This document shows positions 11,582-54,214 of a stretch of DNA of 64,000 nucleotides, in pieces. How positions within the stretch are numbered: position 1 is the first letter of the stretch; every line of letters begins with the position of its first letter. The notes beneath the pieces are model-generated. The model saw nothing but the letters and a program-made list of their open reading frames with translations, searched no databases and was not told where the DNA came from. This stretch comes from an uncultured Candidatus Saccharibacteria bacterium (GTDB taxonomy: Bacteria; Patescibacteriota; UBA1384; GWA2-35-9; CAYZGQ01), in the NCBI GenBank assembly GCA_964478135.1, contig CAYZGQ010000001.1, positions 3,365 to 67,364 on the forward strand. The letters run 5' to 3'. The translations under genes and the position numbers were made by a program.

Positions 11582-11628
11582 TTTCGATTAATTCGTTTAA
11601 TAAGAGTGAATAAAAAAAAGGAGGAATT

Positions 11629-12643: not shown

Positions 12644-13207
12644 ATGCCACGGAGGGGACTTAATTATCTTCTTTTTAGTTTAGTTGTTGTTTCGGCGATT
12701 TTGATGATCCTTTTTTGGCGCAGGAGTCCCAAACAGCCAGTTGACCGGCTGGCCCAGGAGCAGAAAGCGGCCGTTCTCTTTACCAGCGCCAAGGAGGCCC
12801 AAACATCGAGAGACTTTAAAACCGCGGTTGCCCGCTATCAGGAAGCGATCTCGTTCAACCCGAATGAGCCGGTTTATTTTGAGTCGCTCGGAGTCGCCCA
12901 GTATAACATTAAGGATTACCGGGGGGCGATTGCCAGTTTTGAGCAGGCGCTCAAATTGACGCCCGGGAGCGCCTTTTTATGGAACGGTTTGGCCAACGCC
13001 GCTCGCGACAGCGGCGATCGCCAGAGAGCCTTTGAGAGCTACCGCAAGGCGATCGAGCTTGACCCGGGTTTTTTGGTCGGCTACACCAACTTGGCTTACC
13101 TTTACCGAGACCAAGGCGCGGTTGACCGGGCTAAGGAGGTAATCGCCGAAGGTCTGGCCAAAAATCCCGACTCGGTTGAGTTGAAAGACATTTTAAAAAA
13201 CCTATGA
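12644..13207 (+). CDS. TPR-repeat protein with N-terminal membrane anchor
   Basis: At least four 34-aa TPR-like units (AVARYQEAISFNP..., AIASFEQALKLTP..., AFESYRKAIELDP...). The stop overlaps the start of the next gene (ATGA). Confidence 0.65.
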   Translation: MPRRGLNYLLFSLVVVSAILMILFWRRSPKQPVDRLAQEQKAAVLFTSAKEAQTSRDFKTAVARYQEAISFNPNEPVYFESLGVAQYNIKDYRGAIASFEQALKLTPGSAFLWNGLANAARDSGDRQRAFESYRKAIELDPGFLVGYTNLAYLYRDQGAVDRAKEVIAEGLAKNPDSVELKDILKNL

Positions 13208-16200
13208 AACGTCATTTGATTAAAACTCTCGAACGTTTGCTTCATCTGCGGCGCCGGACGACAGGCAGAGTTCACGCCCATCTGGTTGGTCGATGGGGCT
13301 GGTATCGAATCTGGCACGAATTTCCTTTTCACCGCCAGGTTCATTTAACCTCTCTTATTTTGATAGTTTTTGGCACGCTCGGTTTGGTCTTGACAGCCAC
13401 TCGGCCGGCCTTGGCAACTGACTACACCGTCTCGACCAACTCGACTTGGTGCGACTCGGGCGATCTGCCGGCCTCAATCGGCAATCTGACAATTAATTCC
13501 GGCGTTACCCTGACACTCGGCGGGACATCTGGCAACGCGGTCAACGGCCAGAATACTGGCGGGACCGACGCCTGTTCTTATGAGGCGCCGAGTTCGGGTG
13601 TCAGTTGGACAATGACCGGGACAGGGACCTTGACGGTTAACGGCACAATCAAAGTTCAAAGCGAGATTTCCGGCTCAACTGGCGGCACAGTCAAAATAGA
13701 TTTTGCGACAGTGACAGTTGCTTCAGGAGGTAAAATTCATGCTGACAGCACGGGGTTTCTCTCATGTAACACATCAGGTTGTACTGGAGGCGGAGCAGGT
13801 GGAGGACAGTGGACCTCTGGCTATTACGGTGGCGGTGGGGGGCATGGCGGGAAAGGCGGCACCGGTCATATTACTAATGGAAAAGGAGGTTCGGTAAATG
13901 GTAATTCATTTGCTCCTGTGACACTGGGTTCGGGCGGAGCGGGAGGTTCTCAAGGGGCAGGAGGTGGAGCAGTTTATATTAATTCAAGTGGCACCGTTAC
14001 AGTTACAGGAACGGTATCCGCAAATGGTGAGGTAAGCAATAGCAGTGTTGGCGGAGGGGGATCTGGAGGGAGCATTTACATTACCGCCGCTACTGTTGCC
14101 GGCGCAGGGACTGTTACAACGACTGGGGGGGATGGTGGTAGCGCATCCGCTGGTGCGGGCGGAGGCGGTAGAGTTGATATTCGCTATTCGACAGCCAATA
14201 CCTTTAGCGTTGCCAACGCAACAGCCGCAACTGGTTCTACTGGCGTAGCTGGTGATGCTGGAACAATTATTTTTATTGATTCAACCAACAAGGATGGGTA
14301 TATCTACAAAACTTTTACATTCAGTGCGGCGCAAGGAATAGATACAAACTTAGCGACAACTACTGACGGAATATTTAATTTTCGCGATCTTACTTTAGGC
14401 GACGCTTCCAACACTGCAACTGTGTTAGCAATATCAACCGGAACAAGCCCCAATGGTAAAGGACCAACCCTCAATCTAACTGGAAACTTTACTTTAGCCA
14501 GTGGCTCAACCTTTTCAGCCAATGGCACGGGTTATTCCGGTGGTTCAACAACTGGCGTTGGGCCTGGGGGTGGAACCTGGGCTAGCGGGTTTTACGGTGG
14601 TGGAGGAGGGTATGGCGGAGCTGGCGCCACGGGGAGCTCCAGCTATGGTGTTGGTGGCCCTACTTATGGTTCAGCTTCAGCGCCAATTGATCTTGGTTCT
14701 GAAGGTGGAGGCGATCTAGCATCCTCATCGGGTGATGGCGGCGGCGCTATTAGAATCAATGCTACTTCAGGCACTGTTACTATCAATGGCACGATTTCAG
14801 CCAATGGTTCTGCTGGAGGCAGTAGTGTATCTGCCGGCGGTTCAGGCGGCAGTATCTATATTACAGCAGCGACGACCGCTGGCACTGGTTCAATTACAGC
14901 TAATGGCGGCGCTGGAGGTAGTGGCAGCGCTGGCGGAGGGGGCGGCGGTCGGTTGGGTCTTTATTATGTGACTGCCCAAAATCACACCGGTAGCAGGACG
15001 GCCAGCCTCGGGAGCGGCGGGACTGGCGGCTCGGCCGGCACGGTCACTCTCAAATCAATCCCAGCCGCTCCGACCCTTTCCTCTCCGGCCGACGCCGACG
15101 GGGTTTCAACCACGCCGGCTTTGCAGTTTTCAACCACTAATGCCGGCACGAATGAAAATGTTCAGTACTACATCCAGATTGACGACAATTCTGATTTTTC
15201 CTCGGTCACTCAAACGATTGACCAAACCGCCTCTCAAACCGGTTGGACCGGACAAGATCGGGCTAACGGCACGAGCGCGACCGCCGGATCAAGTTTTTAC
15301 GCCTCCTCGACCAGCGCCACTTTTACGGTCCAGACCGCTCTGACCACCAACACCACCTATTACTGGCGCGTTCGAGCCATTGCCTCGGGTGGATCGAATA
15401 TCTATGGCAGTTACTCGAGTTCTCGTTCGTTCGTGACCAACGACCCGCCCCAAGTCTCGATCACCAACACCCCGAGCCAGGATTCTTCCGGCAACATCGC
15501 GATCAACTACAATATCTGTGATACCAACCACTCGACGCTGACCATGCGGGTCCAGTTTACGACCAACAACTCGATCTACACGACCGTCGCCGCCGGGGCG
15601 CTCTCGGGCACCAACAGCTTTGGGTCGGTCACCGGCGTCTCGAGTAATTGCGCCTCGCCCAGCGCCAAGACAGTCACCTTTGACGTCTCGGCCGATTCTA
15701 ATGTCCCGGCCTCCTACTACTCGGCCGCCTCGGGAAACTGGAAAGTTCGCATCCAAGCCGACGATGGCATCGCCAACGGCCAGATCAACTCGACCGCCTC
15801 GTCCGCCTTTGAGCTGGACAACGTCTCGCCCGCTACCCCGACCCATTCTTCGCCGGCCAACGCCAGCTACACCAACGACACCACCCCGGATTTGACCGGA
15901 TCGGCCTATTCCGACGACACTACTCAAACCAATCTTCGGATTCAGATTGACGATAATTCGGATTTTAGTTCGGTCGCTGTTGACTACACCAAAGGCGCTT
16001 CCGGCGTGACCTTTACGGTCGGTCAGGCGGTCGGTTCGGGGACATACACCGCCGGATCGGCCGGTCAAACTTTAGCCGACGGGACATACTACTTTCGGCT
16101 GCGCTACACCGATTCAAAAGGCAATCTATCGAGTTATTCGACCGGCACCTCGTTTACCGTTGACGCGACTTCGCCGGTCGCGCCTAGCTCGTTCAATATT

Positions 16201-19200
16201 TTTGACACTTCAACCGGCTCTAATAATTCCCATCAGGTTGAATGGAACGCCGCTACCGAGGCAAACTTCAAAAATTATCTTGTCCTGCGTTCAACCGATG
16301 ACGTCAGTTATTCGACGCTCTCAACCATTACCGATTCAACCATCCGCAACTATCGAGACTCCAGCCTTGACTCGGCTACGACTTACTACTATAAGATTCG
16401 GACGACCGACCAGGCTGACACGGCGACCGATACGGCCGCCGTGTCGAACAAACCCGGCGCCCCGACCCTCTCGGCGATTTCTTCCGGCACGCCCGGGACC
16501 AACTCGGCCACCATTACTTGGACTTCAAGCGAAAACGGCAGTTCAGAAGTTCGACTCGGGACCTCAAGCGGCAGTTATGGTCTTGGCGTTCGGGGCAACA
16601 ATGCCGACTCGGCTACCTCCCATTCCCAGTTGGTTTCAAATCTCAATCCCAATACGACCTATTACTACATCGTTAGGTCTCGAGACGGCAGTGGACTGGC
16701 GACCACCTCGGCCGAGAATAGTTTTACCACCGCGGCCAAAGTTTCAGCCAGCTCTCTTGCCTCGAGCGTCAGTCACACGACCGCCACCCTGACTTGGAAC
16801 ACCACTGGCACCAACACCTCGAGTGTTGTTGACTGGGGAACCTCAAGCGGCAGCTACAGCCGATCAGACGGCGACGCCGACGCTTCAGAGACGACCCACT
16901 CGGTTACCTTGAAAGGACTAGCTCCGGGCACGACCTATTACTGGCGGGTCAACTCGACCGATTCAAACCTAAATGCCATTACCTCGACCGAGCAGAACTT
17001 GACCACGACCGCCAGACCGGCGATTTCATCAGTCTCATCCGGCACGCCCGGTCAAACCAGCGCCGCGATCACCTTTTCGACCGACCGGTCGGTCAAGGAT
17101 GTTTTTGTTGATTACATTGCTTCCTCAACAAGCGGCGCCTGCGCCAGTGTCTCGAATGCCAAAACGGTTTCGGGCGGGATCGCCGCCAGCGCCGGCACGT
17201 CCCACAGCGTCTCTTTAACCGGTCTTTCGGCCGGCACGACCCATCGGTTCAGAGTTCGAGTGATCGAGCTTGACGCTTCAGCTGAGAGCGCCAATCAACA
17301 GGTTCAAACGATTGATGACAACTCCGGCGCCTGCTACAGCTTTACCAGCGCGACCGACTCGACCGCTCCGACTATTTCCAATCTCGCTTCCGGCAACATC
17401 ACCAACACCTCGGCGGTTATCACTTGGGAGACCGACGAGCCGGCGACCGGCCTTGTTTCGGTCAGCTCTTCAAGCGGTTTTGGTTTTGCCAGCGGCAGCC
17501 AGACAACCGCCAACCCCTCGGCCAATAATCAGAAACAGACCGCCGTTATTACCGGGTTGACCAGAAACACAACCTACTATTTCTTGGCCCGGTCGGTTGA
17601 CGGTTCAAATAATGCCACGACTGCTCCTGAAGCTTCATTCACGACGACCGGCGACGCGACCGGTCCGGTTATTTCCGGCTTGACCGCAAGCTCGATCACG
17701 ACCGACGGCGCCCTCATAACCTGGACGACCGACGAGCCGGCCACGACTCAAGTCAACTATGGCCAAACGACCAATCTGGGCTCGTCCTCGGCCAAAGATG
17801 AAAAGCTTGATCGCAATCACCGAGTCACGCTATCCGGTCTTTCGGGCGCCACGCTCTATTACTTCCAGGTGGTTTCCCAAGACGCCAACGCTAACGAGAC
17901 CAAGAGCCCTGTTTCCTCGACCACCACCTTGACCACCCAGACCGTGCCGAGTGTCTCGAGCATCTCGCTGGGAGAGATTAGTTCAAAAACAGCGACTGTC
18001 AGCTGGAGCTCCAATCTCGCTGGCGATTCGTTCGTCGATTATGGTCTGACTTCGAGTTATGGTTCGCGTCAAGGTCGAGCTGATGACAGCCAAACCGCAC
18101 ACTCAATCACTCTCTCTGGCTTGAAGTCCTCGACCACTTATTACTTTCGAGTCAGAACAAAAGATTCAAACGGCAACGAAGTCATCTCGTCTGGTTCAAG
18201 CTTTACAACCGAGAGCTCGGAAGACGATGTCTCGTCTGACAAATTGGCCCCGGTCATCAGCGGCAATGAAGCCAGCCTCTCTGGTCTAACCGATACTCGA
18301 GCGACAATCAGCTGGACAACCAACGAGGAGTCAACCTCGAGGGTGGATTATGGTCTTGACCAATCTCTCAATCAGTCCCAAAGCGACGATACTTTTGTGA
18401 CCAAGCATGAATTGAAGTTGACCGGCCTTGAAGCGGGCAAGAAGTATCGTTTTCAAGTCTCGAGTCTCGATCGAAACAAGAACCGCGGCAAAGGGAGCGT
18501 TCAAGAGTTTACGACCGCCAAGTCTTCGGCCATTTCCGACGCTTCGCTCGTCACTCAAGAGCTCGATAAACTGATCCTTTCGGTTCAAACGACCGAGGCG
18601 ACCAAGGTGAGGGCTCTCTTTGGCGCCGGTTTGGACAGACTTGACTCCGAAGTTTCAAGTCTGGGCGCCGAGACCTCGAGCCACGCCTTTGTGATCGAGA
18701 ATCTCACTCCGGGGACGGCCTATTATTTTCAGTTTTCGGTTAAGGACAAGTTTGGTCAGGAAACGACCACACCGAGTTTTTGGAAGTTTGAAACTCGAGC
18801 CTTGCCGAAAATTACGGCCGTTAATGTAACCGACCAACAGGCGACCCAGGCGGTCTTGTTGGTTTCAGTCAACACTAAAGCCCAAGTGATCGCGGCTTAC
18901 ACCGATCTTAATAGCAAAAGCCGGAGCGTTGGCTCTGGAGCGCTGGCCGAAAAGCACGAAATTAGGCTGGACGGTCTGAAACCAGAAGCAACCATTCCAG
19001 TTGCCTTGACCGCGATTGACGCATCTGGCAATCAGGCCGTTTTTCAAACCAATGTTTCGACCACCGGCGATCGGTCCGCGCCCGAATTTCAAAAAATCGA
19101 GACCGAGATTATCGGCGGGAGCGGCAACAAAGGGGCGACGATCATCGTCTCGGCGGTGCTTAGCGAGCTGGCGACACTTAATGGTCAGGCCGGTCTGGCC

Positions 19201-19461
19201 GCCAGCAATCAGACGCCGATAACCACGCCCAAAAACGCCGCCGCTAAGGAACAGACATTGGTTTTTCGGAATCTGCCTTCTGGTCAGTTTGTTAAGTTTA
19301 AGCTGATAGCCGAAGATCCGGCAGGCAATGTCACAGAGTCGCCCGACATCACCACCTTTACCCCGGAGCCGAGTAAAAGCGCTCTGACCCTTATCACGAC
19401 TCAACTTGAAACTATCTTCGGCGGTCTGGGAAAAGGCCTTCAGTCTTTATTTGGCAAGTAA
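13204..19461 (+). CDS. giant (2085 aa) surface protein: N-terminal anchor/signal, duplicated Gly-rich beta-rich module, array of FN3-like domains
   Basis: N-terminal basic stretch plus a hydrophobic helix. Two copies of a roughly 150-aa Gly-rich module (GGGxGGxGG...GGSGGSIYITAATxAG). At least 10 repeats ending in the FN3 signature (WxT...TTYYWRV, TTYYYKIR, TTYYYIVRS, TTYYFRVRTKD, TAYYFQFSVKD). Confidence 0.8.
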   Translation: MKRHLIKTLERLLHLRRRTTGRVHAHLVGRWGWYRIWHEFPFHRQVHLTSLILIVFGTLGLVLTATRPALATDYTVSTNSTWCDSGDLPASIGNLTINSGVTLTLGGTSGNAVNGQNTGGTDACSYEAPSSGVSWTMTGTGTLTVNGTIKVQSEISGSTGGTVKIDFATVTVASGGKIHADSTGFLSCNTSGCTGGGAGGGQWTSGYYGGGGGHGGKGGTGHITNGKGGSVNGNSFAPVTLGSGGAGGSQGAGGGAVYINSSGTVTVTGTVSANGEVSNSSVGGGGSGGSIYITAATVAGAGTVTTTGGDGGSASAGAGGGGRVDIRYSTANTFSVANATAATGSTGVAGDAGTIIFIDSTNKDGYIYKTFTFSAAQGIDTNLATTTDGIFNFRDLTLGDASNTATVLAISTGTSPNGKGPTLNLTGNFTLASGSTFSANGTGYSGGSTTGVGPGGGTWASGFYGGGGGYGGAGATGSSSYGVGGPTYGSASAPIDLGSEGGGDLASSSGDGGGAIRINATSGTVTINGTISANGSAGGSSVSAGGSGGSIYITAATTAGTGSITANGGAGGSGSAGGGGGGRLGLYYVTAQNHTGSRTASLGSGGTGGSAGTVTLKSIPAAPTLSSPADADGVSTTPALQFSTTNAGTNENVQYYIQIDDNSDFSSVTQTIDQTASQTGWTGQDRANGTSATAGSSFYASSTSATFTVQTALTTNTTYYWRVRAIASGGSNIYGSYSSSRSFVTNDPPQVSITNTPSQDSSGNIAINYNICDTNHSTLTMRVQFTTNNSIYTTVAAGALSGTNSFGSVTGVSSNCASPSAKTVTFDVSADSNVPASYYSAASGNWKVRIQADDGIANGQINSTASSAFELDNVSPATPTHSSPANASYTNDTTPDLTGSAYSDDTTQTNLRIQIDDNSDFSSVAVDYTKGASGVTFTVGQAVGSGTYTAGSAGQTLADGTYYFRLRYTDSKGNLSSYSTGTSFTVDATSPVAPSSFNIFDTSTGSNNSHQVEWNAATEANFKNYLVLRSTDDVSYSTLSTITDSTIRNYRDSSLDSATTYYYKIRTTDQADTATDTAAVSNKPGAPTLSAISSGTPGTNSATITWTSSENGSSEVRLGTSSGSYGLGVRGNNADSATSHSQLVSNLNPNTTYYYIVRSRDGSGLATTSAENSFTTAAKVSASSLASSVSHTTATLTWNTTGTNTSSVVDWGTSSGSYSRSDGDADASETTHSVTLKGLAPGTTYYWRVNSTDSNLNAITSTEQNLTTTARPAISSVSSGTPGQTSAAITFSTDRSVKDVFVDYIASSTSGACASVSNAKTVSGGIAASAGTSHSVSLTGLSAGTTHRFRVRVIELDASAESANQQVQTIDDNSGACYSFTSATDSTAPTISNLASGNITNTSAVITWETDEPATGLVSVSSSSGFGFASGSQTTANPSANNQKQTAVITGLTRNTTYYFLARSVDGSNNATTAPEASFTTTGDATGPVISGLTASSITTDGALITWTTDEPATTQVNYGQTTNLGSSSAKDEKLDRNHRVTLSGLSGATLYYFQVVSQDANANETKSPVSSTTTLTTQTVPSVSSISLGEISSKTATVSWSSNLAGDSFVDYGLTSSYGSRQGRADDSQTAHSITLSGLKSSTTYYFRVRTKDSNGNEVISSGSSFTTESSEDDVSSDKLAPVISGNEASLSGLTDTRATISWTTNEESTSRVDYGLDQSLNQSQSDDTFVTKHELKLTGLEAGKKYRFQVSSLDRNKNRGKGSVQEFTTAKSSAISDASLVTQELDKLILSVQTTEATKVRALFGAGLDRLDSEVSSLGAETSSHAFVIENLTPGTAYYFQFSVKDKFGQETTTPSFWKFETRALPKITAVNVTDQQATQAVLLVSVNTKAQVIAAYTDLNSKSRSVGSGALAEKHEIRLDGLKPEATIPVALTAIDASGNQAVFQTNVSTTGDRSAPEFQKIETEIIGGSGNKGATIIVSAVLSELATLNGQAGLAASNQTPITTPKNAAAKEQTLVFRNLPSGQFVKFKLIAEDPAGNVTESPDITTFTPEPSKSALTLITTQLETIFGGLGKGLQSLFGK

Positions 19462-27445: not shown

Positions 27446-30400
27446 TTGATCCCGCTGGCACAAGCAGGCCAGCTTTTTGGCTATTCAGCCGGTCATATGA
27501 ACTATTTAGCCCGGTCAGGGAAAATAATCGCTTTGAAACTCGGGGGTCAGTGGTACACGACTCGGGCGGCTGTTTCAGCCTACCAGGCCGGTCAACCCCA
27601 ACCGGAAAACCCGACCGGATTTATGTCTTTAGCCCAAGCGGCCAAGCAGTATGGCTATAGCGCCGGACATCTCAACCTTTTAGCCCGAGAAGGTAAGCTT
27701 GAAGCGGTGAAACTTGGGCGAAACTGGTACACGACCGAGCGCGCTATCGACCAGTACCGACAAGGCGTGCGTGAGATAGAATTAGTGCCAGATAGTCCTG
27801 ACCCGGCGCTCCAGATATCCCAGCCAGAAAATATTAATGTTAAAGTCAGGCCAGTAGCCAGTTACCAGGGATTTGGCATAACCGAAACCGATGATGACGC
27901 GCCAGGTCCGACCGGGGGATTTAGGCTCAAGTCAGTTATGGTCAGCCGTGGTTTTAAGCTCGGGTTGATCACACTTATAGTGTCTGGGCTGGCTTTTGGA
28001 CTGGGACGACTGGTTCAAGGCTGGCGCACGGGTGAGTTGAATGGACTGGGGCCATCTGGCATCGCGGCTTATTTGTTTGGTGGAGAGTTGGCCCAAGGAG
28101 ATCGTCTGGGCTCGGGTTTTCTCGGCAGTATCACACGAGAGCGAGCTCAATCCGATACGCCTGGGGTCAGACCCGAGGCGAGCCCTAGTCCGGACACTGT
28201 GGTCAATAACACGACAGTCAACAACTATAACCAGACCGTTAACAACGACAATCGTCAGGTGACAAACATCAGTACAACCAAAACTGCTAAAGATATTGTT
28301 GGAGAGTTATCCGACCCGCAGGTGAGTGATGACATCACGATTAACTCGAGCAAGGCTGGTTCGTTTAGTCCAAGCGGTAACACTACTGCCTTGACGGTCA
28401 AGCAAAGTTCAGCCAGTCCCTCGGAAACCCCGATCGTTAAGATTCAAAACGCGTCTGGGGCTAACCTTGTCACAGTTGATTTTGAAGGCAATTTAGGTCT
28501 GGCTGGTGGATCTAGATTGGAAATAGGCGGTCAGCAAATAGGAATTGCCAATCTAGCGGATGGATCTTCTATCGCGTCTCTTTCCGGTAGTCAAACTCTG
28601 ACTAATAAAACTTTGAGCGCGGGCGTTATCTACCAAGGATCGGCGATTAGCCCGAGCTACGGCGGGACCGGTCTAACATCAGCTCCCAGCAACGGCCAAC
28701 TCTTGATCGGCAATGGCTCGGGTTATACTCTGGCGGCTCTAACGGCTGGGACGGCAATTAATGTGACCAACGGTTCTGGTTCAATTACGATCGCTAATTC
28801 AGGTGTTACCTCGCTATCTGCCGGAACCGGCATCGCTGTTAGCGGTTCGTCGGGCGCGGTTACACTGACCAATTCGGGCGTGACCGCTCTGACCGGCACA
28901 ACCAACCAGGTCAGCCTGTCTGGTTCAACCGGTTCGATCACCATCTCAACGCCCCAAAACATTCATACCGGCGCCAGTCCAACCTTTTCAAGGCTCAATT
29001 TATCCGAGGCGTCCAATCAGTTGGTTCTTCAGTCAAATAGTGTTACAGGCAGTCTGACCTGGACGCCGGTCACATCCAATAAAACGATCACTCTGCCTAA
29101 TCTCACCGGAACCGCTTTTTTGATTGATGGAGGCCAGACGATCAGCTCTGCTGTCTGGAACGCTAGCGCTATCGGCCCGAGCTATGGCGGGACTGGTCAG
29201 ACGACCCTGGCCAAGGGTGATATTTTGTATGGCTCGGCGACTGATATTTGGTCGCGACTGGCTGTTGGCAGTATTGGTTATGTCCTCCAGGTCTCCCTAG
29301 ACGGCGTTCCAGAATGGGCGACTATTTCTTCCTTATCTGTTGGTAATGCTGACACGCTTGATTCGCTTGATTCAGCGGATTTTTTGCGCGCGACCGCCTC
29401 GGACACTTTTGAAGGAGTTAATTCAAGAACCCTGACCATTCAGTCTGATCTTTCCTCAGGCGCGAGGACGGTTGACCTTTTGACGATCAGCCAGGCGAAC
29501 GATCCAACCAATAACTTTACGACTGGCAATCTCCTAACAATTGCCCAACTCGACACCGGTTCGTCGGCCGATGCCTTAGAACTTAATCAGACTGGATCTG
29601 GTAAGGCTATTAACATTGTTTCAGGCGAGCTGGCGACAGCCGGCAACATCGTTCAAACCGGGGCAACCACGCTGTCAACCGGCACGGGCGCGGTCTCGCT
29701 CGGGGGTGACACGACCATCGCTACTGGAAAGAACTTGACTCTCGCGTCCGGGACAGGCACTTTTAGTCAGATTTTTAGTAATACGACCGGTACTGGAGCA
29801 AACTGGAATATCACTAACTCTGGTTCTTCTGGGACTAACACTGTTGGCGGGATAGGATTAGTGTTGGCTGGAACCGCCAACACGACTGGTTCGAATGTGA
29901 TTAATGCTATTAATTTTTCCAATGTCCCTCCGGCGACCAATAATTCTTATTACGCCCTGAATGTCGGAACCGGCTTTACTGATATTGTACGCTACAATGG
30001 CGCCCAGTTGATCTCTGGCTCGGGTGTCATTCAATCGGCCGCGCTTTCTGGTAACTACACTGGTGTTACTGGAGTTGGGATTTTATCCACCGGCACCTGG
30101 AATGCAGACACAATCATCTTTGCCAAGGGCGGCACGGGCTTAACAGCCACGCCCAGCAATGGCCAACTCTTGATCGGCAATGGCTCGGGTTACACTCTGG
30201 CCGGCTTAACCGGCACTACCAATCAGATCAATGTCGCTAGCGGGGCCGGTTCGATCACCCTCTCAACTCCCCAAAACATCCATACCGCCGCCAGTCCAAC
30301 CTTTGCCGGTTTGACTTTGTCCGACTTGACCCCTGGTTCTTTGGTCTTTGCCGGCGCCGGCGGGGTGATCAGCCAGGACAACGCCAAGTTCTTCTGGGAT

Positions 30401-32896
30401 CAGACAAATACTCGATTGGGTCTCGGGACAAGTTCGCCACTTTTTCCGATTCATGTTGTTAGATCGGGCGGTGGCGGGACGTTGAATTTTGACACTTACG
30501 CCGGTTCTGGACTGGGCAACAGCGCCATTCAAGGTCGGCGGGCGGCCGGAACTTTGGCCAGCCCGACAGCCACTCTGTCGGATATGACTCTGTTCGATCT
30601 GCTTGGGTCTGGCTACGACGGTTCAGCTTTCACCGGACAGATCGCTTCGATACGCATGCAAGCCAATCAGAATTTTAGCCCGACCAGTCAGGGCACCAGG
30701 ATTGTCTTTTTGACCACGGCCAATGATTCGACGACCGCGACTGAACGGCTGCGGATCAAACACAATGGCGATGTGGCAATCGGCAACGGCTCGACCGATC
30801 AGATATTATTTGGTTCGACCGGCTCGGCGGTCTTCAACGAACAGGGCAATGATGCCGATTTTCGGGTCGAGGGCGACACCGACGCCAATCTATTGTTCAC
30901 CGACGCTTCGGCCGATGTCTTGGGTGTCGGCACCGCGACCTTCGAAGCCAACACCCGCAAGATGGAGGTGAGATACACCGATACCGCGACCTCCGGAGGC
31001 ACCTTTTCAACGATTAGATTGCTTTCGGACATCAATGCTCCTTCTAACTCCACGGCATCCCATTTTGGTCTAGGAACGACTTTAAGAACCGCGAGCGGCA
31101 ACGCTTCCAACTACACCGACTCCACGACAGGTATTAAGGCGATGAACTTTGTCGTCCAGCACCGAGGCACAGGCACGGTTACTAGAATGACAGGCTTGGG
31201 CGGCAATGTCACCAACAGCTCAAGCGGTACGATTACGACTGCCGAGAGCATCGTGGCTGGGGTTGACCTGACCTCAACCGGTCCGATTACTACTTGGAAC
31301 GCCCTGCGGGTCTTCGCGCCCTCTATCACTGGCTCTGGGGTGCTGACTAACGCTCGCGGGCTTTACATCAGTAACATCACAGGGGCCTCCACGCAGAATC
31401 TAGCTATCCTGACAGAAGGGGGCGGAGTAGTCTTTAATGAAAACGGCACGGACAGCGATTTCCGGGTCGAGGGCGACACCGATGCCAATCTATTGTTCAC
31501 CGACGCTTCGGCTGATCGGGTTGGTATAGGGACAAACACCCCTTCGCTCAAACTTCACGTGGTGGACAACTCTTCAACTTCGGCTATTTTCCAGCGCAAC
31601 AGCACTGCCACCGGTTCGAGTGTTGGCTCAACGGTTTTTTTGGATAATTTGGACACCACGACCAACAATGGAGCTCGTTTGATTTTTAGAACCAACGATA
31701 CTGGCGGCGCAACCAGGCAAGCGGCTGGAATAGGCTCGCTCGTAACCGCCCGGGGTGCTAGCAGTGTGACTGGCGATCTGGTATTCCTGACCAACAACAA
31801 CTCAACCGGCGTTTCCGAGGTTGCTCGGTTAACCGGAGCGGGCGCGCTTGGCATTGGTGAGTCGCCGGCGGCCAATATGAAGCTTGATGTCGCTGGCCGG
31901 GTTCAGATTAATCTGGCCGGAACCCAAACCTCGGTTGCCTTGTGCGGTAGTCACCCGGCTGGCGGCGGGGCCTCGGTTTCCGATGTCGAGATTGTTGACT
32001 GCACCGGCACGCCGGCGGCTGACTATGCCGAGATCTATCCGGTTTCAAACGATGTTGAATACACTGATTTAGTGGCTATCGGACCGGATTCGGTTAAAAC
32101 CACCGATCAAAACTCGATTCAAAGGCTAGTCAAAGCTACGATCGCCAATCAAGCCAACACTTTAGGAGTCGTTGTTGACAACTACGGCGATTTCTCCTCG
32201 GTCGGTCACAACATTAAAGGTTCTGATAATCCCAAACCGGTCGCGCTTTCAGGCCGGGTGAGAGTGAAAGTTTCCGGCCAGTCGGGCGCGATAGCGCCCG
32301 GCGATTATCTGACCGCCTCGTCCAAACCCGGTCGGGCGATGAAGGCGACCTCAAGCGCCAAGATAGTTGGAGTGGCTTTGGGATCATTTAGCGGCGACGA
32401 GGGGACGGTAATGATGTTTGTCAGCAATTTCTGGTATAATCCGTCTTCGGGCGAGAGTATTCAGGGTACCCAAACTGCATCCTACCAGGCGCTCGAAGTT
32501 GCCGGCCTTTTGCGAACGAATCTTTTGGAGGTTGCCGGGCCAGCCGAGTTCAAAGGTAGTTTAGTTGTCTGGGGTGAAACAACCTTTAAGGCACCGGTTG
32601 TGGTTCAAAAGACGCTGACTGCTAAAGAAAAGATCGTGTCCAAAGGTGACCTTGAGCTCAAGGGCAATCTTGTTCTAAACCCCGACATTAAAGGGTCAGC
32701 CTTGCCAGTGACTAAGGGCGCGACCAGCCTTGAGGTCGTGTTTAGCAAGCCCCAAGCTGACACAAGCTACTTGGCTTTCGTCACGCCATCCCAGCCGATC
32801 GGTTTTGGCGTTACCAAACAATCTGACAAAATGATCGTTACCTTTGAGGCCGAGGCGCCGGAAGGATTAATCCTGGATTGGCTGATAGTCAGATGA
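27446..32896 (+). CDS. giant (1816 aa) membrane protein: two N-terminal excisionase-type HTH modules, one TM helix, long S/T/G-rich repetitive extracytoplasmic region
   Basis: Two tandem roughly 45-aa units (LAQAGQLFGYSAGHMNYLARSGKIIALKLGGQWYTT and LAQAAKQYGYSAGHLNLLAREGKLEAVKLGRNWYTT) match the HTH_17/excisionase pattern. A TM helix follows (FKLGLITLIVSGLAFGL). There are near-identical internal DNA repeats. The start codon is TTG as given by the ORF track, with no ATG and no SD in frame upstream, so the start is uncertain. Confidence 0.7.
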   Translation: MIPLAQAGQLFGYSAGHMNYLARSGKIIALKLGGQWYTTRAAVSAYQAGQPQPENPTGFMSLAQAAKQYGYSAGHLNLLAREGKLEAVKLGRNWYTTERAIDQYRQGVREIELVPDSPDPALQISQPENINVKVRPVASYQGFGITETDDDAPGPTGGFRLKSVMVSRGFKLGLITLIVSGLAFGLGRLVQGWRTGELNGLGPSGIAAYLFGGELAQGDRLGSGFLGSITRERAQSDTPGVRPEASPSPDTVVNNTTVNNYNQTVNNDNRQVTNISTTKTAKDIVGELSDPQVSDDITINSSKAGSFSPSGNTTALTVKQSSASPSETPIVKIQNASGANLVTVDFEGNLGLAGGSRLEIGGQQIGIANLADGSSIASLSGSQTLTNKTLSAGVIYQGSAISPSYGGTGLTSAPSNGQLLIGNGSGYTLAALTAGTAINVTNGSGSITIANSGVTSLSAGTGIAVSGSSGAVTLTNSGVTALTGTTNQVSLSGSTGSITISTPQNIHTGASPTFSRLNLSEASNQLVLQSNSVTGSLTWTPVTSNKTITLPNLTGTAFLIDGGQTISSAVWNASAIGPSYGGTGQTTLAKGDILYGSATDIWSRLAVGSIGYVLQVSLDGVPEWATISSLSVGNADTLDSLDSADFLRATASDTFEGVNSRTLTIQSDLSSGARTVDLLTISQANDPTNNFTTGNLLTIAQLDTGSSADALELNQTGSGKAINIVSGELATAGNIVQTGATTLSTGTGAVSLGGDTTIATGKNLTLASGTGTFSQIFSNTTGTGANWNITNSGSSGTNTVGGIGLVLAGTANTTGSNVINAINFSNVPPATNNSYYALNVGTGFTDIVRYNGAQLISGSGVIQSAALSGNYTGVTGVGILSTGTWNADTIIFAKGGTGLTATPSNGQLLIGNGSGYTLAGLTGTTNQINVASGAGSITLSTPQNIHTAASPTFAGLTLSDLTPGSLVFAGAGGVISQDNAKFFWDQTNTRLGLGTSSPLFPIHVVRSGGGGTLNFDTYAGSGLGNSAIQGRRAAGTLASPTATLSDMTLFDLLGSGYDGSAFTGQIASIRMQANQNFSPTSQGTRIVFLTTANDSTTATERLRIKHNGDVAIGNGSTDQILFGSTGSAVFNEQGNDADFRVEGDTDANLLFTDASADVLGVGTATFEANTRKMEVRYTDTATSGGTFSTIRLLSDINAPSNSTASHFGLGTTLRTASGNASNYTDSTTGIKAMNFVVQHRGTGTVTRMTGLGGNVTNSSSGTITTAESIVAGVDLTSTGPITTWNALRVFAPSITGSGVLTNARGLYISNITGASTQNLAILTEGGGVVFNENGTDSDFRVEGDTDANLLFTDASADRVGIGTNTPSLKLHVVDNSSTSAIFQRNSTATGSSVGSTVFLDNLDTTTNNGARLIFRTNDTGGATRQAAGIGSLVTARGASSVTGDLVFLTNNNSTGVSEVARLTGAGALGIGESPAANMKLDVAGRVQINLAGTQTSVALCGSHPAGGGASVSDVEIVDCTGTPAADYAEIYPVSNDVEYTDLVAIGPDSVKTTDQNSIQRLVKATIANQANTLGVVVDNYGDFSSVGHNIKGSDNPKPVALSGRVRVKVSGQSGAIAPGDYLTASSKPGRAMKATSSAKIVGVALGSFSGDEGTVMMFVSNFWYNPSSGESIQGTQTASYQALEVAGLLRTNLLEVAGPAEFKGSLVVWGETTFKAPVVVQKTLTAKEKIVSKGDLELKGNLVLNPDIKGSALPVTKGATSLEVVFSKPQADTSYLAFVTPSQPIGFGVTKQSDKMIVTFEAEAPEGLILDWLIVR

Positions 32897-32949
32897 ACCG
32901 TCTTTAATAAGTTAATAGACTAACTAAAAAAGGGGAGAAAGGAGATTGT

Positions 32950-33408
32950 ATGAAGTCCAAAACAGTTGTTATCGCGTTGGTGGTGATAGCGATCGTGTCC
33001 ACAGCCGCCTATTACTTTGGCGTGGTTATTCAAACACGAGCCCAAAAGCCGACCGCCCAATCTGTGTCTCGTAGTTACGAGGCGGTCTTTCTAACTAACG
33101 GCCAGGTTTATTTTGGCAAAGTGGCCAAAAGAGACCGGGACGAGATCGTGGTCAGAGACATTTATTACTTGAGAGTTGAGCAACAACTTCAGCCCGCTCC
33201 AGAGAATCAGACGGACCAGCAACCTAAAATAGCTTTAGTTAAGCTGGGTGATGAAATCCACGGCCCTCAAGACATTATGAGGATCAATACCCAACATGTT
33301 CTTTTCACAGAGAAGCTAAAAGAAAACGGTCAGGTAGTCCAGACAATTCTGCGTCACAAGCAAGGCGCGACCAGCCAGTCTTCGGCTCAACAATCTCCGG
33401 TCGAGTGA
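32950..33408 (+). CDS. small membrane-anchored hypothetical protein
   Basis: An N-terminal TM helix (VVIALVVIAIVSTAAYYFGVV) followed by a soluble domain. SD-like gaaaggagattgtATG. Confidence 0.45.
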   Translation: MKSKTVVIALVVIAIVSTAAYYFGVVIQTRAQKPTAQSVSRSYEAVFLTNGQVYFGKVAKRDRDEIVVRDIYYLRVEQQLQPAPENQTDQQPKIALVKLGDEIHGPQDIMRINTQHVLFTEKLKENGQVVQTILRHKQGATSQSSAQQSPVE

Positions 33409-38678: not shown

Positions 38679-39587
38679 TTAATTCTTTTTGGATTGTTGA
38701 GTTATTGATTCAAAGATCGGTTCAAGTTGACCATCTAAAATAGAGTTTATTCTGGAAAAACTTTTACCCGATCGATGGTCGGTCACCCTGTCCTGGGGGA
38801 AGTTGTAAGTTCTGATTTTTTCCGATCGATCACCCGAACCAACCATTTGTTTGCGAACTTTATCGGTCTTGGCGTGGATGCTGGCATCCTCGATTTTATT
38901 GAGCCGGGCGGCTAAAACCGCCAGTGCGCTTTGTCTGTTGGCCGTTTGAGAACGTTCGTCCTGTGAGGTCGCGACTAGGCCGGTTGGCCGGTGAACGATT
39001 CGGACCGCTGTCTCAACCTTATTAACATTTTGACCGCCGTGACCGCCGGCGCGAAAAAATGATATTTCAAGCTCGCTTGGTTTTAATTTAGCCGAGTCTT
39101 GTTTGACAACCGGCAAAACCGCGACCGTGGCGGCGGATGTGTGAATTCGGCCTCTCTTTTCCGTTACTGGTGTTCGCTGGACCCGGTGAACACCAGCCTC
39201 GGTTTTGAGGGAGTGATAGGGACTTGGGTTAGTTTCAAGTTGAGCCGATCCTTGGTTTTGTTTAACTTCTACTATGGCCGATTTAATCCCGCCTTGACTT
39301 GACGTTTGAATCTCAATCGGCCGCCAAATCCACGATCGGCGATGGCAAAAGTGCCGATACATTCTTAAAAGATCGGCCGCCCAAATTTCAGCCTCACCCC
39401 CGCCCACGCCGGCCCTGATTTCAAGAAAACAGTCATTGACTCGTTCTTCCTTTTGGCCCTTAAACTGACCGGTTTGAGCCTCGAGGCGTTTAATGTCCTC
39501 GCGAGCCATCTGCCCGATCGCAGGATCAGGATTTGAAGCGAGCGCCCGCGCCTGATTGAGCTGTTTGACAATTGTTTGATAGTCCAT
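38679..39587 (-). CDS. prfA: peptide chain release factor 1
   Basis: GGQ motif ([16 protein letters not shown]). Domain-2 tripeptide PVT within [26 protein letters not shown], which is the RF1 type (PxT) rather than RF2 (SPF). No frameshift site. Confidence 0.85.
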
Positions 39588-49528: not shown

Positions 49529-49557
49529 ACTACTAACTAAATTTCCAAGGAGGTTCG

Positions 49558-49842
49558 ATGGACGATTCAATGAATCCCGTTGGCGGTGGTACGGGTGCCG
49601 GCGATACCGGTTCTACCGACACTGGCGCCGGGGCTGTTCCTAGTACGCCAAGCGGCGACACCAGTACGGGGGATGCAGATCAAACCCCTGCTTCTGGGGG
49701 GGGTAGCTCGGTCCCAACGCCCCCAGCTCCTTCTGGCGGCGATGGTGGTTGGACTCCTGCTGGGGCTGATACAGCTAGCATACCAGATGGTGATTCCGAT
49801 TATTCGGCCGACGCAGTTCCAACTCCACCCGCCGGTCAGTAA
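49558..49842 (+). CDS. small low-complexity Gly/Thr/Asp/Pro-rich acidic protein
   Basis: Strong SD (aaggaggttcgATG). 94 aa with no hydrophobic core. Followed by a terminator hairpin. Confidence 0.4.
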   Translation: MDDSMNPVGGGTGAGDTGSTDTGAGAVPSTPSGDTSTGDADQTPASGGGSSVPTPPAPSGGDGGWTPAGADTASIPDGDSDYSADAVPTPPAGQ

Positions 49843-52017: not shown

Positions 52018-52410
52018 ATGGCAAAGCATCTGGCTATTTTTAGCCCTAATCAACTGATCGAAAAAATTTTTCGCTCTATCAAGACGGTTGATGGTCGCTT
52101 GACCCAAGACCGAGTCGCTCCCTATGGGTTGGTTAAAAAAGGCGACACAATCCTGATTAAAATCAGCGGCGGACCGGTTTTAGGTCAGGTTGAAGTGGAT
52201 AACGTTTTGTTTTTTGAGCTGACAGATGGGGAACTATTGGGTAAACTTCGGAAAGAGTATGGGGCTGACATGGCGGTTGACGATCGTTTCTGGGAACTTA
52301 AACGAGAGGCCCGCTTTGCCAGCATCATCTTCTTAACCAAACCCAAACGTTACCTGACGGCGCTCAAGTTCAAAAAGCGCGATCGCCGGGCTTGGGTCGT
52401 AGTGGGATAA
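52018..52410 (+). CDS. ASCH/PUA-like domain protein
   Basis: 130 aa, basic C-terminus. Only the beta-barrel pattern is consistent with ASCH. Weak call. Confidence 0.35.
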   Translation: MAKHLAIFSPNQLIEKIFRSIKTVDGRLTQDRVAPYGLVKKGDTILIKISGGPVLGQVEVDNVLFFELTDGELLGKLRKEYGADMAVDDRFWELKREARFASIIFLTKPKRYLTALKFKKRDRRAWVVVG

Positions 52411-52540
52411 AAGAAGGAGGTTGTCCTTTGACAATTATTCGTCGGTCGATTTTATCGGTCGGCTCGTGCATTTTAATGGCGGAAAATTTGTCGGATTGTG
52501 GGATTAGTGGATCGATGGCAAAGCTAAAAGGAGGTAGGGA

Positions 52541-53404
52541 ATGAACAATCTTACTCTAGAAAATCTTTCCTTGCCCAAGGAAGATTATTTTAAGATCAAC
52601 TTTCAAGTTACCGATGAGATGTGCCTGGGTCATTTTGATCCCAAACGACACTACGGGGTCTTGCCTGGTGCGTACCTTTTTGGGTTGGTTTGTGATTATT
52701 TCACCCAGAATAATAACCGTTCAATCACTGCAATTACTAAAGCTCAATTTACCCGACTGATACTACCGAGCATGGAGGTGTTAATCGAAGTTTGGATCAA
52801 GGGCAATCAGGTAAGAGTGGTTTGTTTTGCCGAAGGCCGGTCGGCGGCTACCATGGATCTGTTGCTGACCGAGTTGTCCGGGTCACAGGACGATTGCCCA
52901 GGCGCAGTGTCTTTGGCCGGAACTTATCTCCCATCCGATCAACTTAATGACTTATTGCCGTTTAGTTCTGATTTTATATTGATTCGGGATGTCGTAATCG
53001 GAGAGGATTGTTCCTTCTGTCTTGTTAGATCGAAACAAGACCCTCGTTTTTTTGACGATCAAAGGTTAAAATTGTCGGGTCTGATCGAAGCCGGTAATCA
53101 TTTATTAATCACTCACGTCTTATCACTCCATCAGGAGCTCGTCGGACAGGTGCCGTTTCTGGTCAGGCTGACCGATGTCAGCTTCTCGGGCCCTCGACTG
53201 GTTAATCCGAATTGTGTTCTACTGATGGTTGATAATCTTAATATGCGAGGTAATCACGGACGTGCTCGAGTAATCGGCTGTCAGACGGATGTAACAGAAA
53301 TCTACCGGGCTCAAGTTAGCTTCCGTAGTGACTCAAGTGGTGTCGAGCATAAATACCAACCCGGTACGCCAGTACCGAGCAACCCATCCCCAGCTTTGCC
53401 TTGA
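52541..53404 (+). CDS. double hotdog-fold protein, N-terminal half FabZ-like dehydratase
   Basis: CLGHFDPKRHYGVLPGAYLFGLV and ITKAQFTRLILPSMEVLIEV align with the FabZ segments GHFPxxPVMPGVLxxEA and IDKARFKRxVxPGDxL. Strong SD (aaaggaggtagggaATG). Confidence 0.55.
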   Translation: MNNLTLENLSLPKEDYFKINFQVTDEMCLGHFDPKRHYGVLPGAYLFGLVCDYFTQNNNRSITAITKAQFTRLILPSMEVLIEVWIKGNQVRVVCFAEGRSAATMDLLLTELSGSQDDCPGAVSLAGTYLPSDQLNDLLPFSSDFILIRDVVIGEDCSFCLVRSKQDPRFFDDQRLKLSGLIEAGNHLLITHVLSLHQELVGQVPFLVRLTDVSFSGPRLVNPNCVLLMVDNLNMRGNHGRARVIGCQTDVTEIYRAQVSFRSDSSGVEHKYQPGTPVPSNPSPALP

Positions 53405-54152
53405 ACCGGCTAAAACGGTGGTAATAACTGGCGGATCGGGGACGATCGGTCGAGCGATGGTCTGGCAATTCGGGGCCAATGGCTGCGACGTAGTGGTCCA
53501 GTATAATAGAGACGAACCGGCGGCTCGATTTACTGCCGAGTCAGCCCAACGGCAGTTTGGGGTCAAGACCTGGCTTGTCCAGCAAGATTTTGCTCAACCA
53601 GGATCTGGCAAGAATTTCTGGCTCAATGTCAAAGCTATAGTCGGCCAAACCCCGGACATTCTGGTCATCAATGCCGGTTTCCTTGGCATCGGATCAAACG
53701 GGCTTTCCCTGACTGAAGAAGAATTATATGACAGTATCCAAGTCAACGCCGTGCAACCGTTTTTCTTAATGCAGGCGATGATGAATGACCCGGACACCCC
53801 CTCTGATTCCCAAATCTTGGTCCATCTTTCTAAGGGTTGGGACAAGTGGCTGCCCGGTTACGCTGGATTAGGCATGGCCAAAGCCCTTCTGATGCGGATG
53901 GTCATTGAACTAGCCCAAGTAGGAGCGCCCCGCCGTATTTGCGTCAACGCCATTACGAGCGACCTAGTTGCCCAGACCGACGTTATGAATTGGTTTCCCC
54001 CTCATGAGGTCGCGCTCCACCTCGATCGGATGCCCTTTGGGAGACTGATATACCCAGAGGATGTGGCAATATTTTTCTGCCACACTGCCTGTAACTTAGG
54101 TGTTACCGGCCAAAACCTTGTGTTCGATGGCGGGGTAGGGAATGTAGCATGA
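53328..54152 (+). CDS. SDR-family oxidoreductase (atypical active-site spacing)
   Basis: Rossmann motif TGGSGTIGRA and an NAG motif. The Tyr...Lys spacing is non-canonical (YAGLGMAK). The start is uncertain: the ATG at 53328 overlaps the upstream gene by 76 nt, and the GTG at 53418 gives a non-overlapping start just before the Gly motif. Confidence 0.7.
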   Translation: MTQVVSSINTNPVRQYRATHPQLCLEPAKTVVITGGSGTIGRAMVWQFGANGCDVVVQYNRDEPAARFTAESAQRQFGVKTWLVQQDFAQPGSGKNFWLNVKAIVGQTPDILVINAGFLGIGSNGLSLTEEELYDSIQVNAVQPFFLMQAMMNDPDTPSDSQILVHLSKGWDKWLPGYAGLGMAKALLMRMVIELAQVGAPRRICVNAITSDLVAQTDVMNWFPPHEVALHLDRMPFGRLIYPEDVAIFFCHTACNLGVTGQNLVFDGGVGNVA

Positions 54153-54214
54153 GATTTTCAGTCAAAGAAGGCCCAAACAGGCCTTCTTTTGAGAGCCGGG
54201 TCGTGCTAGAGTAA

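Follow-up and report, generated by a model that had tools for sequence, protein, structure and literature searches.

An orphan gene beside a gene of the enoyl-reductase class in an uncultured Candidatus Saccharibacteria bacterium: a possible dehydratase and reductase pair

Bacteria of the candidate phyla radiation (CPR) have been reported to be without membrane-lipid synthesis (PMC10939385). Could two neighboring genes of an uncultured Candidatus Saccharibacteria bacterium code for a dehydratase and a reductase that act on acyl chains? We have put this question to a stretch of 64,000 nucleotides of contig CAYZGQ010000001.1 (positions 3,365 to 67,364 of the forward strand; this whole 64-kb stretch is called the window below), for which an original prediction, made from the letters alone, had proposed a FabZ-like double-hotdog dehydratase followed by an atypical short-chain dehydrogenase/reductase (SDR) at 52541-54152. 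Two open reading frames (ORFs) on the same strand match these coordinates exactly. One is ORF A (52541..53404, plus strand, 287 amino acids), an orphan protein and a candidate diverged FabZ-like hotdog protein; the other is an SDR gene (53403..54152, plus strand) of the enoyl-reductase (FabL/FabI) class.

The reading that we favor, although we would give it slightly less than an even chance, is that of a coupled two-gene module made of a very diverged dehydratase or hydratase and an enoyl-thioester reductase. ORF A would be a lineage-specific and extremely diverged protein in which the N-terminal ~115 residues form a FabZ-like hotdog that keeps the catalytic His31, and the remainder, residues 118-262, might form a second, degenerate hotdog giving the acidic partner Glu183, as in fused or heterodimeric dehydratases. 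It would dehydrate a (3R)-hydroxyacyl thioester, carried by acyl carrier protein (ACP) or coenzyme A (CoA), to a trans-2-enoyl thioester. The downstream protein, a putative NADPH-type enoyl-thioester reductase of the FabL/FabI class, would then reduce this product with NADPH to the saturated acyl chain. Together these reactions would be the last two steps of the fatty-acid elongation cycle, carried out outside a full set of type II fatty-acid synthesis (FAS II) genes, for instance on scavenged acyl chains; the pair may serve lipid salvage or remodelling. Both genes would be translated from a single coupled unit bracketed by hairpins.

The reductase gene

Two Pfam models, adh_short_C2 (6.9e-23) and adh_short (6.9e-20), recognize the downstream protein with scores that exceed their gathering cutoffs, and the chemistry of the SDR class is supported. 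Its best NCBIfam model is FabL (2.7e-28) and its best match among PDB sequences is FabL of B. subtilis (3OIC, 3.6e-19; the SDRs that follow trail it by about 11 bits), with 28% identity across 250 amino acids by BLASTP. In the alignment with FabL the Asn, the Ser, the Y-x6-K motif and the NADPH site (YNR/YAR) are all in register. The Gly-rich NAD(P) motif of the original prediction is indeed there, as the dinucleotide-binding loop TGGSGTIG (53427..53450, plus strand), aligned with TGSSRGVG of FabL. The odd Tyr-x7-Lys spacing is not, the actual spacing being Tyr-x6-Lys: the catalytic motif YAGLGMAK (53859..53882, plus strand; Y178-AGLGMA-K185) falls without gaps on the Tyr and the Lys of FabL Y-TTVGVS-K, and has Leu, not Tyr, at K-4.

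This spacing is the signature of a divergent SDR subfamily, the enoyl reductases FabI and FabL, and FabL is characterized by a Y-x6-K without internal Met and by the classical Asn/Ser arrangement (PMC9260719). The SDR shares both of these FabL traits. The protein is neither a generic SDR nor an "atypical" one but a member of the FabI/FabL class, with the Y-x6-K motif and the first place of FabL in both NCBIfam and PDB. Judged by its sequence, the protein is a new and distant member of that enoyl-reductase class and probably an NADPH-dependent enoyl-thioester reductase. It scores 99 bits against the FabL equivalog model NF005975, below the cutoff of 328, and is by this measure FabL-like and not a FabL orthologue. 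Since the SDR belongs to the FabI/FabL class, a partner that acts on 3-hydroxyacyl or enoyl thioesters is a sensible expectation. The nearest database relative, the copy from the same strain aside, is an SDR of Caldilinea with 29% identity and an unrelated gene context, and no hotdog gene was found among the neighbors of that Caldilinea SDR.

The two genes stand apart from the rest of fatty-acid synthesis, as had been predicted: no ketosynthase, ACP or acyltransferase gene adjoins the pair in the 64-kb window, nor is a full FAS II set, which would have spoken against a tailoring or salvage role, encoded there. The tblastn comparisons of E. coli PlsX, FabH, FabD, AcpP and FabF with the six frames gave none of them and nothing else below E 0.09, FabG of E. 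coli matched the SDR only (5e-11), and the Pfam scans of the other ORFs of the window gave no FAS II genes.

The FabZ-like signal in ORF A

In ORF A, GHFD occupies residues 30-33 and ITKAQFTRLILP residues 65-76 (52733..52768, plus strand), the latter aligned with GIDEARFKRPVVP of FabZ and the best local match in both hmmsearch and hhalign. We have scored its two halves against two FabZ profiles, one built from 120 enterobacterial sequences and a diverse one from 19 FabZ-family proteins of plasmid records that range from Legionella to Streptomyces and include the coronafacic acid dehydratase, with all HMMER filters off, Z=1 and p taken from 5000 shuffles. The N-terminal half (residues 1-125; 52541..52915, plus strand), to which the measurable FabZ-like signal is confined, obtained 6.5 bits with the enterobacterial profile (5/5000 shuffles as good, p 0.001) and 3.8 bits with the diverse one (14/5000, p 0.003). 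For the C-terminal half (residues 126-262; 52916..53326, plus strand), scored as residues 126-265, the values were 1.1 bits (113/5000, p 0.023) and 2.5 bits (32/5000, p 0.006), respectively. We have also scored 224 control segments cut from the remaining proteins of the window. Under the diverse profile the halves of ORF A outrank all, or all but one, of these and would take 1st and 2nd place; under the enterobacterial profile the second half would come no higher than about 9th.

In both halves the match falls on one and the same strand-turn-strand portion of FabZ, in a colinear register. Within the first half, sub-profiles of FabZ fell in colinear order on residues 30-44 (p 0.017), 64-73 (p 0.07) and 96-103 (p 0.05), and a semi-global comparison with BLOSUM62 gave z = 3.8. 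Unguided MAFFT placed N20, G30-H31-F32, P42-G43, A68, F70, P76 and V84 of ORF A on invariant FabZ columns. By sequence, the similarity to FabZ is of the twilight-zone kind, and lies mainly in residues 20-110. The original prediction had called the N-terminal half close to FabZ; what remains of this is that the GHF, PG and ITKAQFTRLILP motifs align, catalytic His included, and "closely" was an overstatement in view of the lack of any match in Pfam, NCBIfam or PDB, of the BLASTP E values of 0.03-0.13 and of an hhalign probability of about 1%. The BLASTP values belong to a single comparison with E. coli FabZ (the query being 99-100% identical to database FabZ) and correspond to two pieces of 29-30 residues only, with E 0.03 and 0.13.

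Structure prediction adds some detail for the same region. The AlphaFold2 model made without alignment or template has a 15-residue helix at 42-56 and then four strands where the helix and strands of FabZ fall in the MAFFT register, and the order of secondary structure fits a hotdog for residues 42-115, at a confidence (predicted local distance difference test, pLDDT) of 35. When rows of FabZ, laid by MAFFT over residues 1-106, were supplied, residues 14-117 were modelled as a hotdog with pLDDT 65-85 and matched FabZ/ApeI at E 4e-5, a result that largely follows from the input alignment. The best superposition of this guided first-half model is the one with ApeI (template modelling score 0.72, root mean square deviation 2.4 A), again not independently of the FabZ rows. 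The last strand of the guided model, residues 100-111 of the query, mostly had no correctly aligned FabZ rows and is a partly independent detail.

The original prediction had also offered a way to refute itself, namely the absence of the catalytic His/Glu dyad from both halves, and the outcome is divided. The first half would keep H31 (codon CAT, 52631..52633, plus strand), aligned with the catalytic His of the GHF motif of FabZ in an invariant column; this holds in the sub-profile match at residues 30-44 and in the only automatic alignment (MAFFT), itself not statistically secure. At the column of the catalytic Glu the first half has Gly48. The second half is without a His motif, and by eye LLPFSSDFILIRDVV resembles LLPHRFPFLLVDRV of FabZ and LIEAGNH, with Glu183 (codon 53087-53089), resembles ILEAMAQ of FabZ, both without statistical support. 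In FabZ each active site draws its His and its Glu from different subunits, and fused or heterodimeric dehydratases (DH domains of polyketide synthases (PKS), HadAB, ApeI:P) keep one composite site. It would make coherent sense for ORF A to carry the His in its first half and the Glu in its second, although on a statistically unsupported alignment. A bolder version would make ORF A a single-chain FabZ derivative whose complementary hotdog halves provide His31 and Glu183 as one site, tethered or ancestrally fused by a Pro-rich linker to a FabL-type reductase, as a minimal module that saturates scavenged 3-hydroxy or enoyl chains in a bacterium lacking de novo fatty-acid synthesis. The reductase would then be expressed only when ORF A is translated, through reinitiation or a +1 shift at CCU UGA. 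We consider this an improbable elaboration.

A second, degenerate hotdog, as originally proposed, has found no independent support (8 conserved columns against 8.4 in shuffles, and the rank of about 9th given above). Every test of the second half other than the full-profile score was non-significant (semi-global, hhalign, sub-profile and conserved-column), and the internal duplication test detected no similarity of the two halves to each other. The guided AlphaFold2 run, designed as a semi-independent probe of this half, left it disordered and is uninformative about it. The second hotdog is not demonstrated.

Searches of libraries and databases point to a protein without relatives. Across the scans of Pfam, NCBIfam, PHROGs and PADLOC the only match was a stray one to Cbl_N3 (E 0.066), which was discounted, and phmmer against PDB sequences returned noise only (leucine-rich repeat, GART; E > 0.6). 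Among 5.8 billion proteins searched by word index there was none but ORF A itself, no relative appeared among viral contigs, and tblastn of FabZ on the window did not pick ORF A out. Two additional HMMER matches, to MBG and TIG repeat proteins, were rejected, their scores being inflated by eight repeats each. The literature on FabZ or enoyl reductase in CPR bacteria yielded nothing useful. ORF A is a true orphan among about 15 billion proteins, the same strain aside.

A number of these and other results weigh against the pair being a dehydratase and a reductase. Neither ORF A as a whole nor its halves matched Pfam or NCBIfam even at E<=10, with FabA/FabZ, MaoC, PS-DH, ApeI/ApeP and thioesterase among the Pfam hotdog models available to match; an exhaustive HMMER search over 1.8 billion cluster representatives, among which there must be very many FabZ, gave no real relative, and the hhalign probability was that already mentioned. 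All the p-values for FabZ are post hoc, the family having been picked after the sequence was read. The first half scored lower with the diverse profile than with the enterobacterial one (3.8 versus 6.5 bits), and true remote homology usually scores higher, not lower, with a diverse profile. Matches to conserved FabZ columns were not above those of shuffles (11 versus 7.4 +- 2.2 in the first half, 8 versus 8.4 in the second), in a count (MAFFT --add) that does not discriminate, since shuffles reach up to 14/32. The model without alignment or template had a pLDDT of 35 for ORF A, and Foldseek with it gave no hotdog and only meaningless matches. Residues 118-287 stayed at pLDDT 24-42 in both AlphaFold2 runs, even beside the modelled first hotdog, and their secondary structure differed between the two runs. 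To this are added the Gly48 at the Glu column; the 99 bits of the SDR against the 328 required for FabL, so that the enoyl reductase activity of the SDR itself is something we infer; and the fact that no gene for ACP, AcpS, an acyl-ACP synthetase or an acyltransferase is known from the organism, of which the analysis covered the 64-kb window. Of the dehydratase and reductase originally proposed, the reductase has been retained and sharpened to FabL-like, and no curated profile, structure search or template-free prediction backs the dehydratase. The same division appeared in the profile searches that had been suggested, where adh_short was found in the SDR, and neither PF07977 nor PF01575 in ORF A.

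Junction, flanking signals and competing explanations

The frame of the SDR is +1 relative to that of ORF A, and the C-terminal tail of ORF A, the Pro/Ser-rich and linker-like SDSSGVEHKYQPGTPVPSNPSPALP (residues 263-287; 53327..53401, plus strand; 56% P/S/T/G, codon score poor at -0.21), leads on, if read in the +1 frame, to the first strand of the SDR. The conserved part of the SDR starts at EPAKTVVITGG, one base after the stop of ORF A, and every SDR alignment begins at E26/K29, immediately 3' of that stop. The candidate starts of the SDR are GTG 53418 or GTG 53328/53337/53340. The start in the database (P0004, 231 amino acids) is ATG 53457, located 3' of the TGGSGTIG loop, with the conserved KTVVITGGSGTIG left upstream (53328-53460), and must be wrong because it cuts off this cofactor loop. 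In the RNA fold a stem-loop (53396..53424, plus strand) contains both the ORF A stop UGA (53402-53404) and the candidate SDR start GUG (53418-53420), and the region 53350-53480 folds at -51.7 kcal/mol (z -3.0, 0/200 shuffles as stable). Translational coupling would be the simplest reading of the junction: the ribosome that ends ORF A would open the hairpin and re-initiate at GUG 53418, giving MVITGGSG and the rest of the SDR.

The flanks agree with a unit of two genes. ORF A is preceded by a Shine-Dalgarno site, AAGGAGGT (52528..52535, plus strand), an 8-nt match 5 nt 5' of the ATG and rare here, where most genes of the window have none. Between an ASCH-like gene and ORF A there is a terminator-like hairpin with a T-run (52444..52474, plus strand; a pattern scan and consensus match only), and directly 3' of the SDR stop another terminator-like hairpin (54155..54195, plus strand) with a 10-bp G+C-rich core stem followed by UUUUGAG (-17.9 kcal/mol, z -2.8). 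Because of these hairpins before ORF A and after the SDR, the two genes look like one bicistronic unit, and their linkage is supported. Of the six frames, that of ORF A has the highest codon-usage score (0.054, versus <= -0.07 for the others). The SDR, with 0.074, is as atypical as ORF A, and both lie well below every one of 27 housekeeping genes in the window (mean 0.246 +- 0.056, minimum 0.127), which suggests weak expression or foreign origin.

ORF A is intact in at least four assemblies (a 71-kb NCBI contig and Logan assemblies from at least two runs, ERR3478686 and ERR4904391) that are 99.98% identical. Such a degree of identity leaves no comparative information (no dN/dS, no conservation analysis), and the number of assemblies rules out a random assembly artefact. 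The sole amino-acid polymorphism of ORF A is Y45C (codon 52673-52675), at the start of the putative central helix, with Cys45 in one Logan contig and Tyr45 in the others.

How do other explanations fare with these data? ORF A might be a lineage-specific orphan of another fold and role in which the FabZ-like motifs arose by chance, with the FabL-like SDR acting alone or with another partner and adjacency meaning co-transcription only. The uniformly negative database, profile and structure searches agree with this, as do targeted p-values of only about 1e-3 to 1e-2 obtained post hoc, the non-significant conserved-column test, and the presence in the window of other orphans with strong Shine-Dalgarno sites and no family. 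We nevertheless hold it rather unlikely, as both halves are top-ranked of 226 segments against the diverse FabZ profile, the motifs are colinear, correctly spaced and consistent with the predicted secondary structure, the neighboring SDR belongs independently to a class that uses the product of a dehydratase, and the RNA structure at the junction appears to couple the genes tightly. Another thought is that the pair is a decaying, non-functional remnant of fatty-acid synthesis in a reduced genome, ORF A being a degenerated derivative of fabZ and the SDR perhaps translated without its NADP loop. The poor codon adaptation of both genes (0.054 and 0.074 versus 0.246 +- 0.056) would fit, and so would the loss of the FabZ Glu from the first half, the ambiguous SDR start, truncated in the database call, and the lack of FAS II partners in the window. 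But both frames are long and intact, the cofactor and catalytic motifs of the SDR are all kept, no ribosome-binding site in the window is of a stronger type than that of ORF A, and dead genes are usually deleted quickly in reduced genomes, all of which makes this explanation very improbable.

The junction itself invites a further alternative, a single gene for a bifunctional hotdog-linker-SDR protein that was recently split or is still translated by frameshifting. Removing one T of CCT-T-GAA gives a single chain, ...PSPALP-EPAKTVVITGGSG...; in other words, an extra T (53400-53402) parts ...PSNPSPALP from EPAKTVVITGGSG, and a +1 shift at CCU UGA A would produce a fusion of about 536 amino acids, or else a broken fusion would have its SDR re-initiated at GUG 53418. 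Read on in the +1 frame, the Pro/Ser-rich tail passes without a break to the residues where conservation of the SDR sets in, the SDR alignments all start right after the stop, at E26/K29, 53350-53480 is unusually structured (z -3.0), and an identical sequence in at least four assemblies means that no random assembly error is involved. Against this, CCU UGA A is not among the sites known to promote an efficient +1 shift, and the re-pairing of tRNA-Pro on CUU is poor, as established for prfB-type sites; there is no stimulator resembling a Shine-Dalgarno sequence upstream of the shift site; initiation at the GUG 13 nt past the stop yields the whole SDR (MVITGGSG...) with no need of a frameshift; there are no relatives that show an unbroken fusion; and the 77-nt overlap could be a coincidence. 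Nothing at the junction speaks specifically for a split ancestral fusion or a +1 frameshift, and we regard this explanation as distinctly improbable. A precedent of the prfB type within the window was considered and rejected, the release-factor gene there being that of RF1 and not RF2.

If the dehydratase and reductase module were real, it would be a concrete and testable set of enzymes that remodels acyl chains although the other FAS II components are absent, in organisms thought to depend on host lipids, and would extend the hotdog dehydratases to a sequence group invisible to current profiles. At best, ORF A adds to the hotdog dehydratases a new variant beyond these profiles; at worst, it is an uncharacterised orphan. 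The secure gains are the reclassification of the SDR to the enoyl-reductase type, the demonstration that its database start is wrong and the documentation of ORF A as an orphan. Nothing in the locus is likely to greatly surprise a specialist, and no long-standing question is made testable without biochemistry.

Genomic setting and known systems

The gene content of the window resembles that of Patescibacteria/CPR. The housekeeping genes that it carries on one strand are those of KsgA, MetRS, TatD, IscS/NifU, FolD, MnmA, CtpA and L9, together with an ABC transporter, LigA, GatCAB, HtrA, a sortase and RF1; also S2, EF-Ts, RRF, RseP, ProRS, TIM, PGK, trigger factor and ClpP, as well as glycosyltransferases, PMT_2 and giant surface proteins. 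The best match of the trigger factor among 185,579 species representatives of GTDB has 31% identity, and a value no higher than this indicates a lineage of which very little has been sampled. The window contains neither a tRNA gene nor a match to any Rfam family.

Several other features of the window deserve mention in their own right. The gene 5' of ORF A (52018-52410, 130 amino acids) has only a sub-threshold match to the ASCH domain (E 0.1), no homologue beyond the same strain by cluster look-up, and a genome-typical codon usage (0.246). Strong Shine-Dalgarno sites of 6-8 nt, AAGGAG(GT), were found at only four ORFs of the window, all without a Pfam family: 52528-52535, 49545-49556, 11612-11626 and 32933-32946. 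The second of them precedes a low-complexity ORF rich in G/T/P/S (49558-49842), the third a Pro-rich one with a transmembrane segment and a pilin-like C-terminal part (11629-12576), and the last one an ORF with an N-terminal transmembrane segment (32950-33408). The RF1 gene (38679-39587, minus strand) was matched by RF1 profiles only from about position 46-55, and is either N-terminally short or has its start mis-set; there is no RF2 in the window. Two giant ORFs, 13204-19461 (2085 amino acids) and 27446-32896 (1816 amino acids), have a GC content of 0.55-0.57 versus 0.46-0.51 elsewhere in the window, and other large proteins near them carry CarboxypepD_reg repeats, with the sortase gene adjacent. 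The gene for L9 (11258-11581) codes for 107 amino acids only, with a match to the N-terminal domain alone.

Among known systems, FabZ (PF07977; E. coli FabZ, PDB 6N3P, 1U1Z) would be the closest model for the first half of ORF A, which is long enough for one hotdog and in which residues 20-110 can be brought into colinear alignment with GHF...PG, the central helix and the following strands, H31 falling on the catalytic His. The N-terminal strand of FabZ, LLPHRxPFLLVD, is missing from it, and ORF A is twice the size of FabZ, has a Pro-rich tail and gives no significant profile or BLAST score. FabZ is a hexamer based on homodimers. The multifunctional enzyme type 2 (MFE-2) and the combinations of a MaoC-type (R)-hydratase with an SDR are comparable in that a hotdog hydratase or dehydratase and an SDR work on the same acyl thioester, sometimes through a flexible linker. 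They differ in that the SDR of MFE-2 is a 3-hydroxyacyl-CoA dehydrogenase with Y-x3-K, N-terminal to a MaoC-type double hotdog, whereas the present SDR is of the enoyl-reductase type and downstream, and ORF A has no MaoC match (PF01575/PF13452).

The double-hotdog dehydratases (ApeI:ApeP, 6QSR; mycobacterial HadAB/HadBC; the DH of PKS and fatty-acid synthases, PF14765) differ by the absence from ORF A of any Pfam match to PS-DH, ApeI-like or ApeP_N, and by the absence of ketosynthase, ACP and PKS genes nearby. They share with the proposed arrangement the idea of a composite site made of a His-hotdog and an acid-hotdog. Their length is typically ~260-290 amino acids, compared to the 287 of ORF A, and their acidic motif D/E-x3-Q/H has a candidate in E183-AGN-H187 of ORF A, by an alignment made by eye. 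ApeI, the best partner of the guided first-half model in superposition, is the short subunit. For the SDR the comparison is with FabL (YgaA), the NADPH-dependent enoyl-ACP reductase III of Bacillus subtilis (3OIC/3OID), and with the FabI/InhA class. The SDR is far below the FabL equivalog cutoff and stands outside any FAS II gene set in the window, but it has the TGxxxGxG loop, the Asn...Ser...Tyr-x6-Lys series and the Arg of the NADPH site in common with these enzymes.

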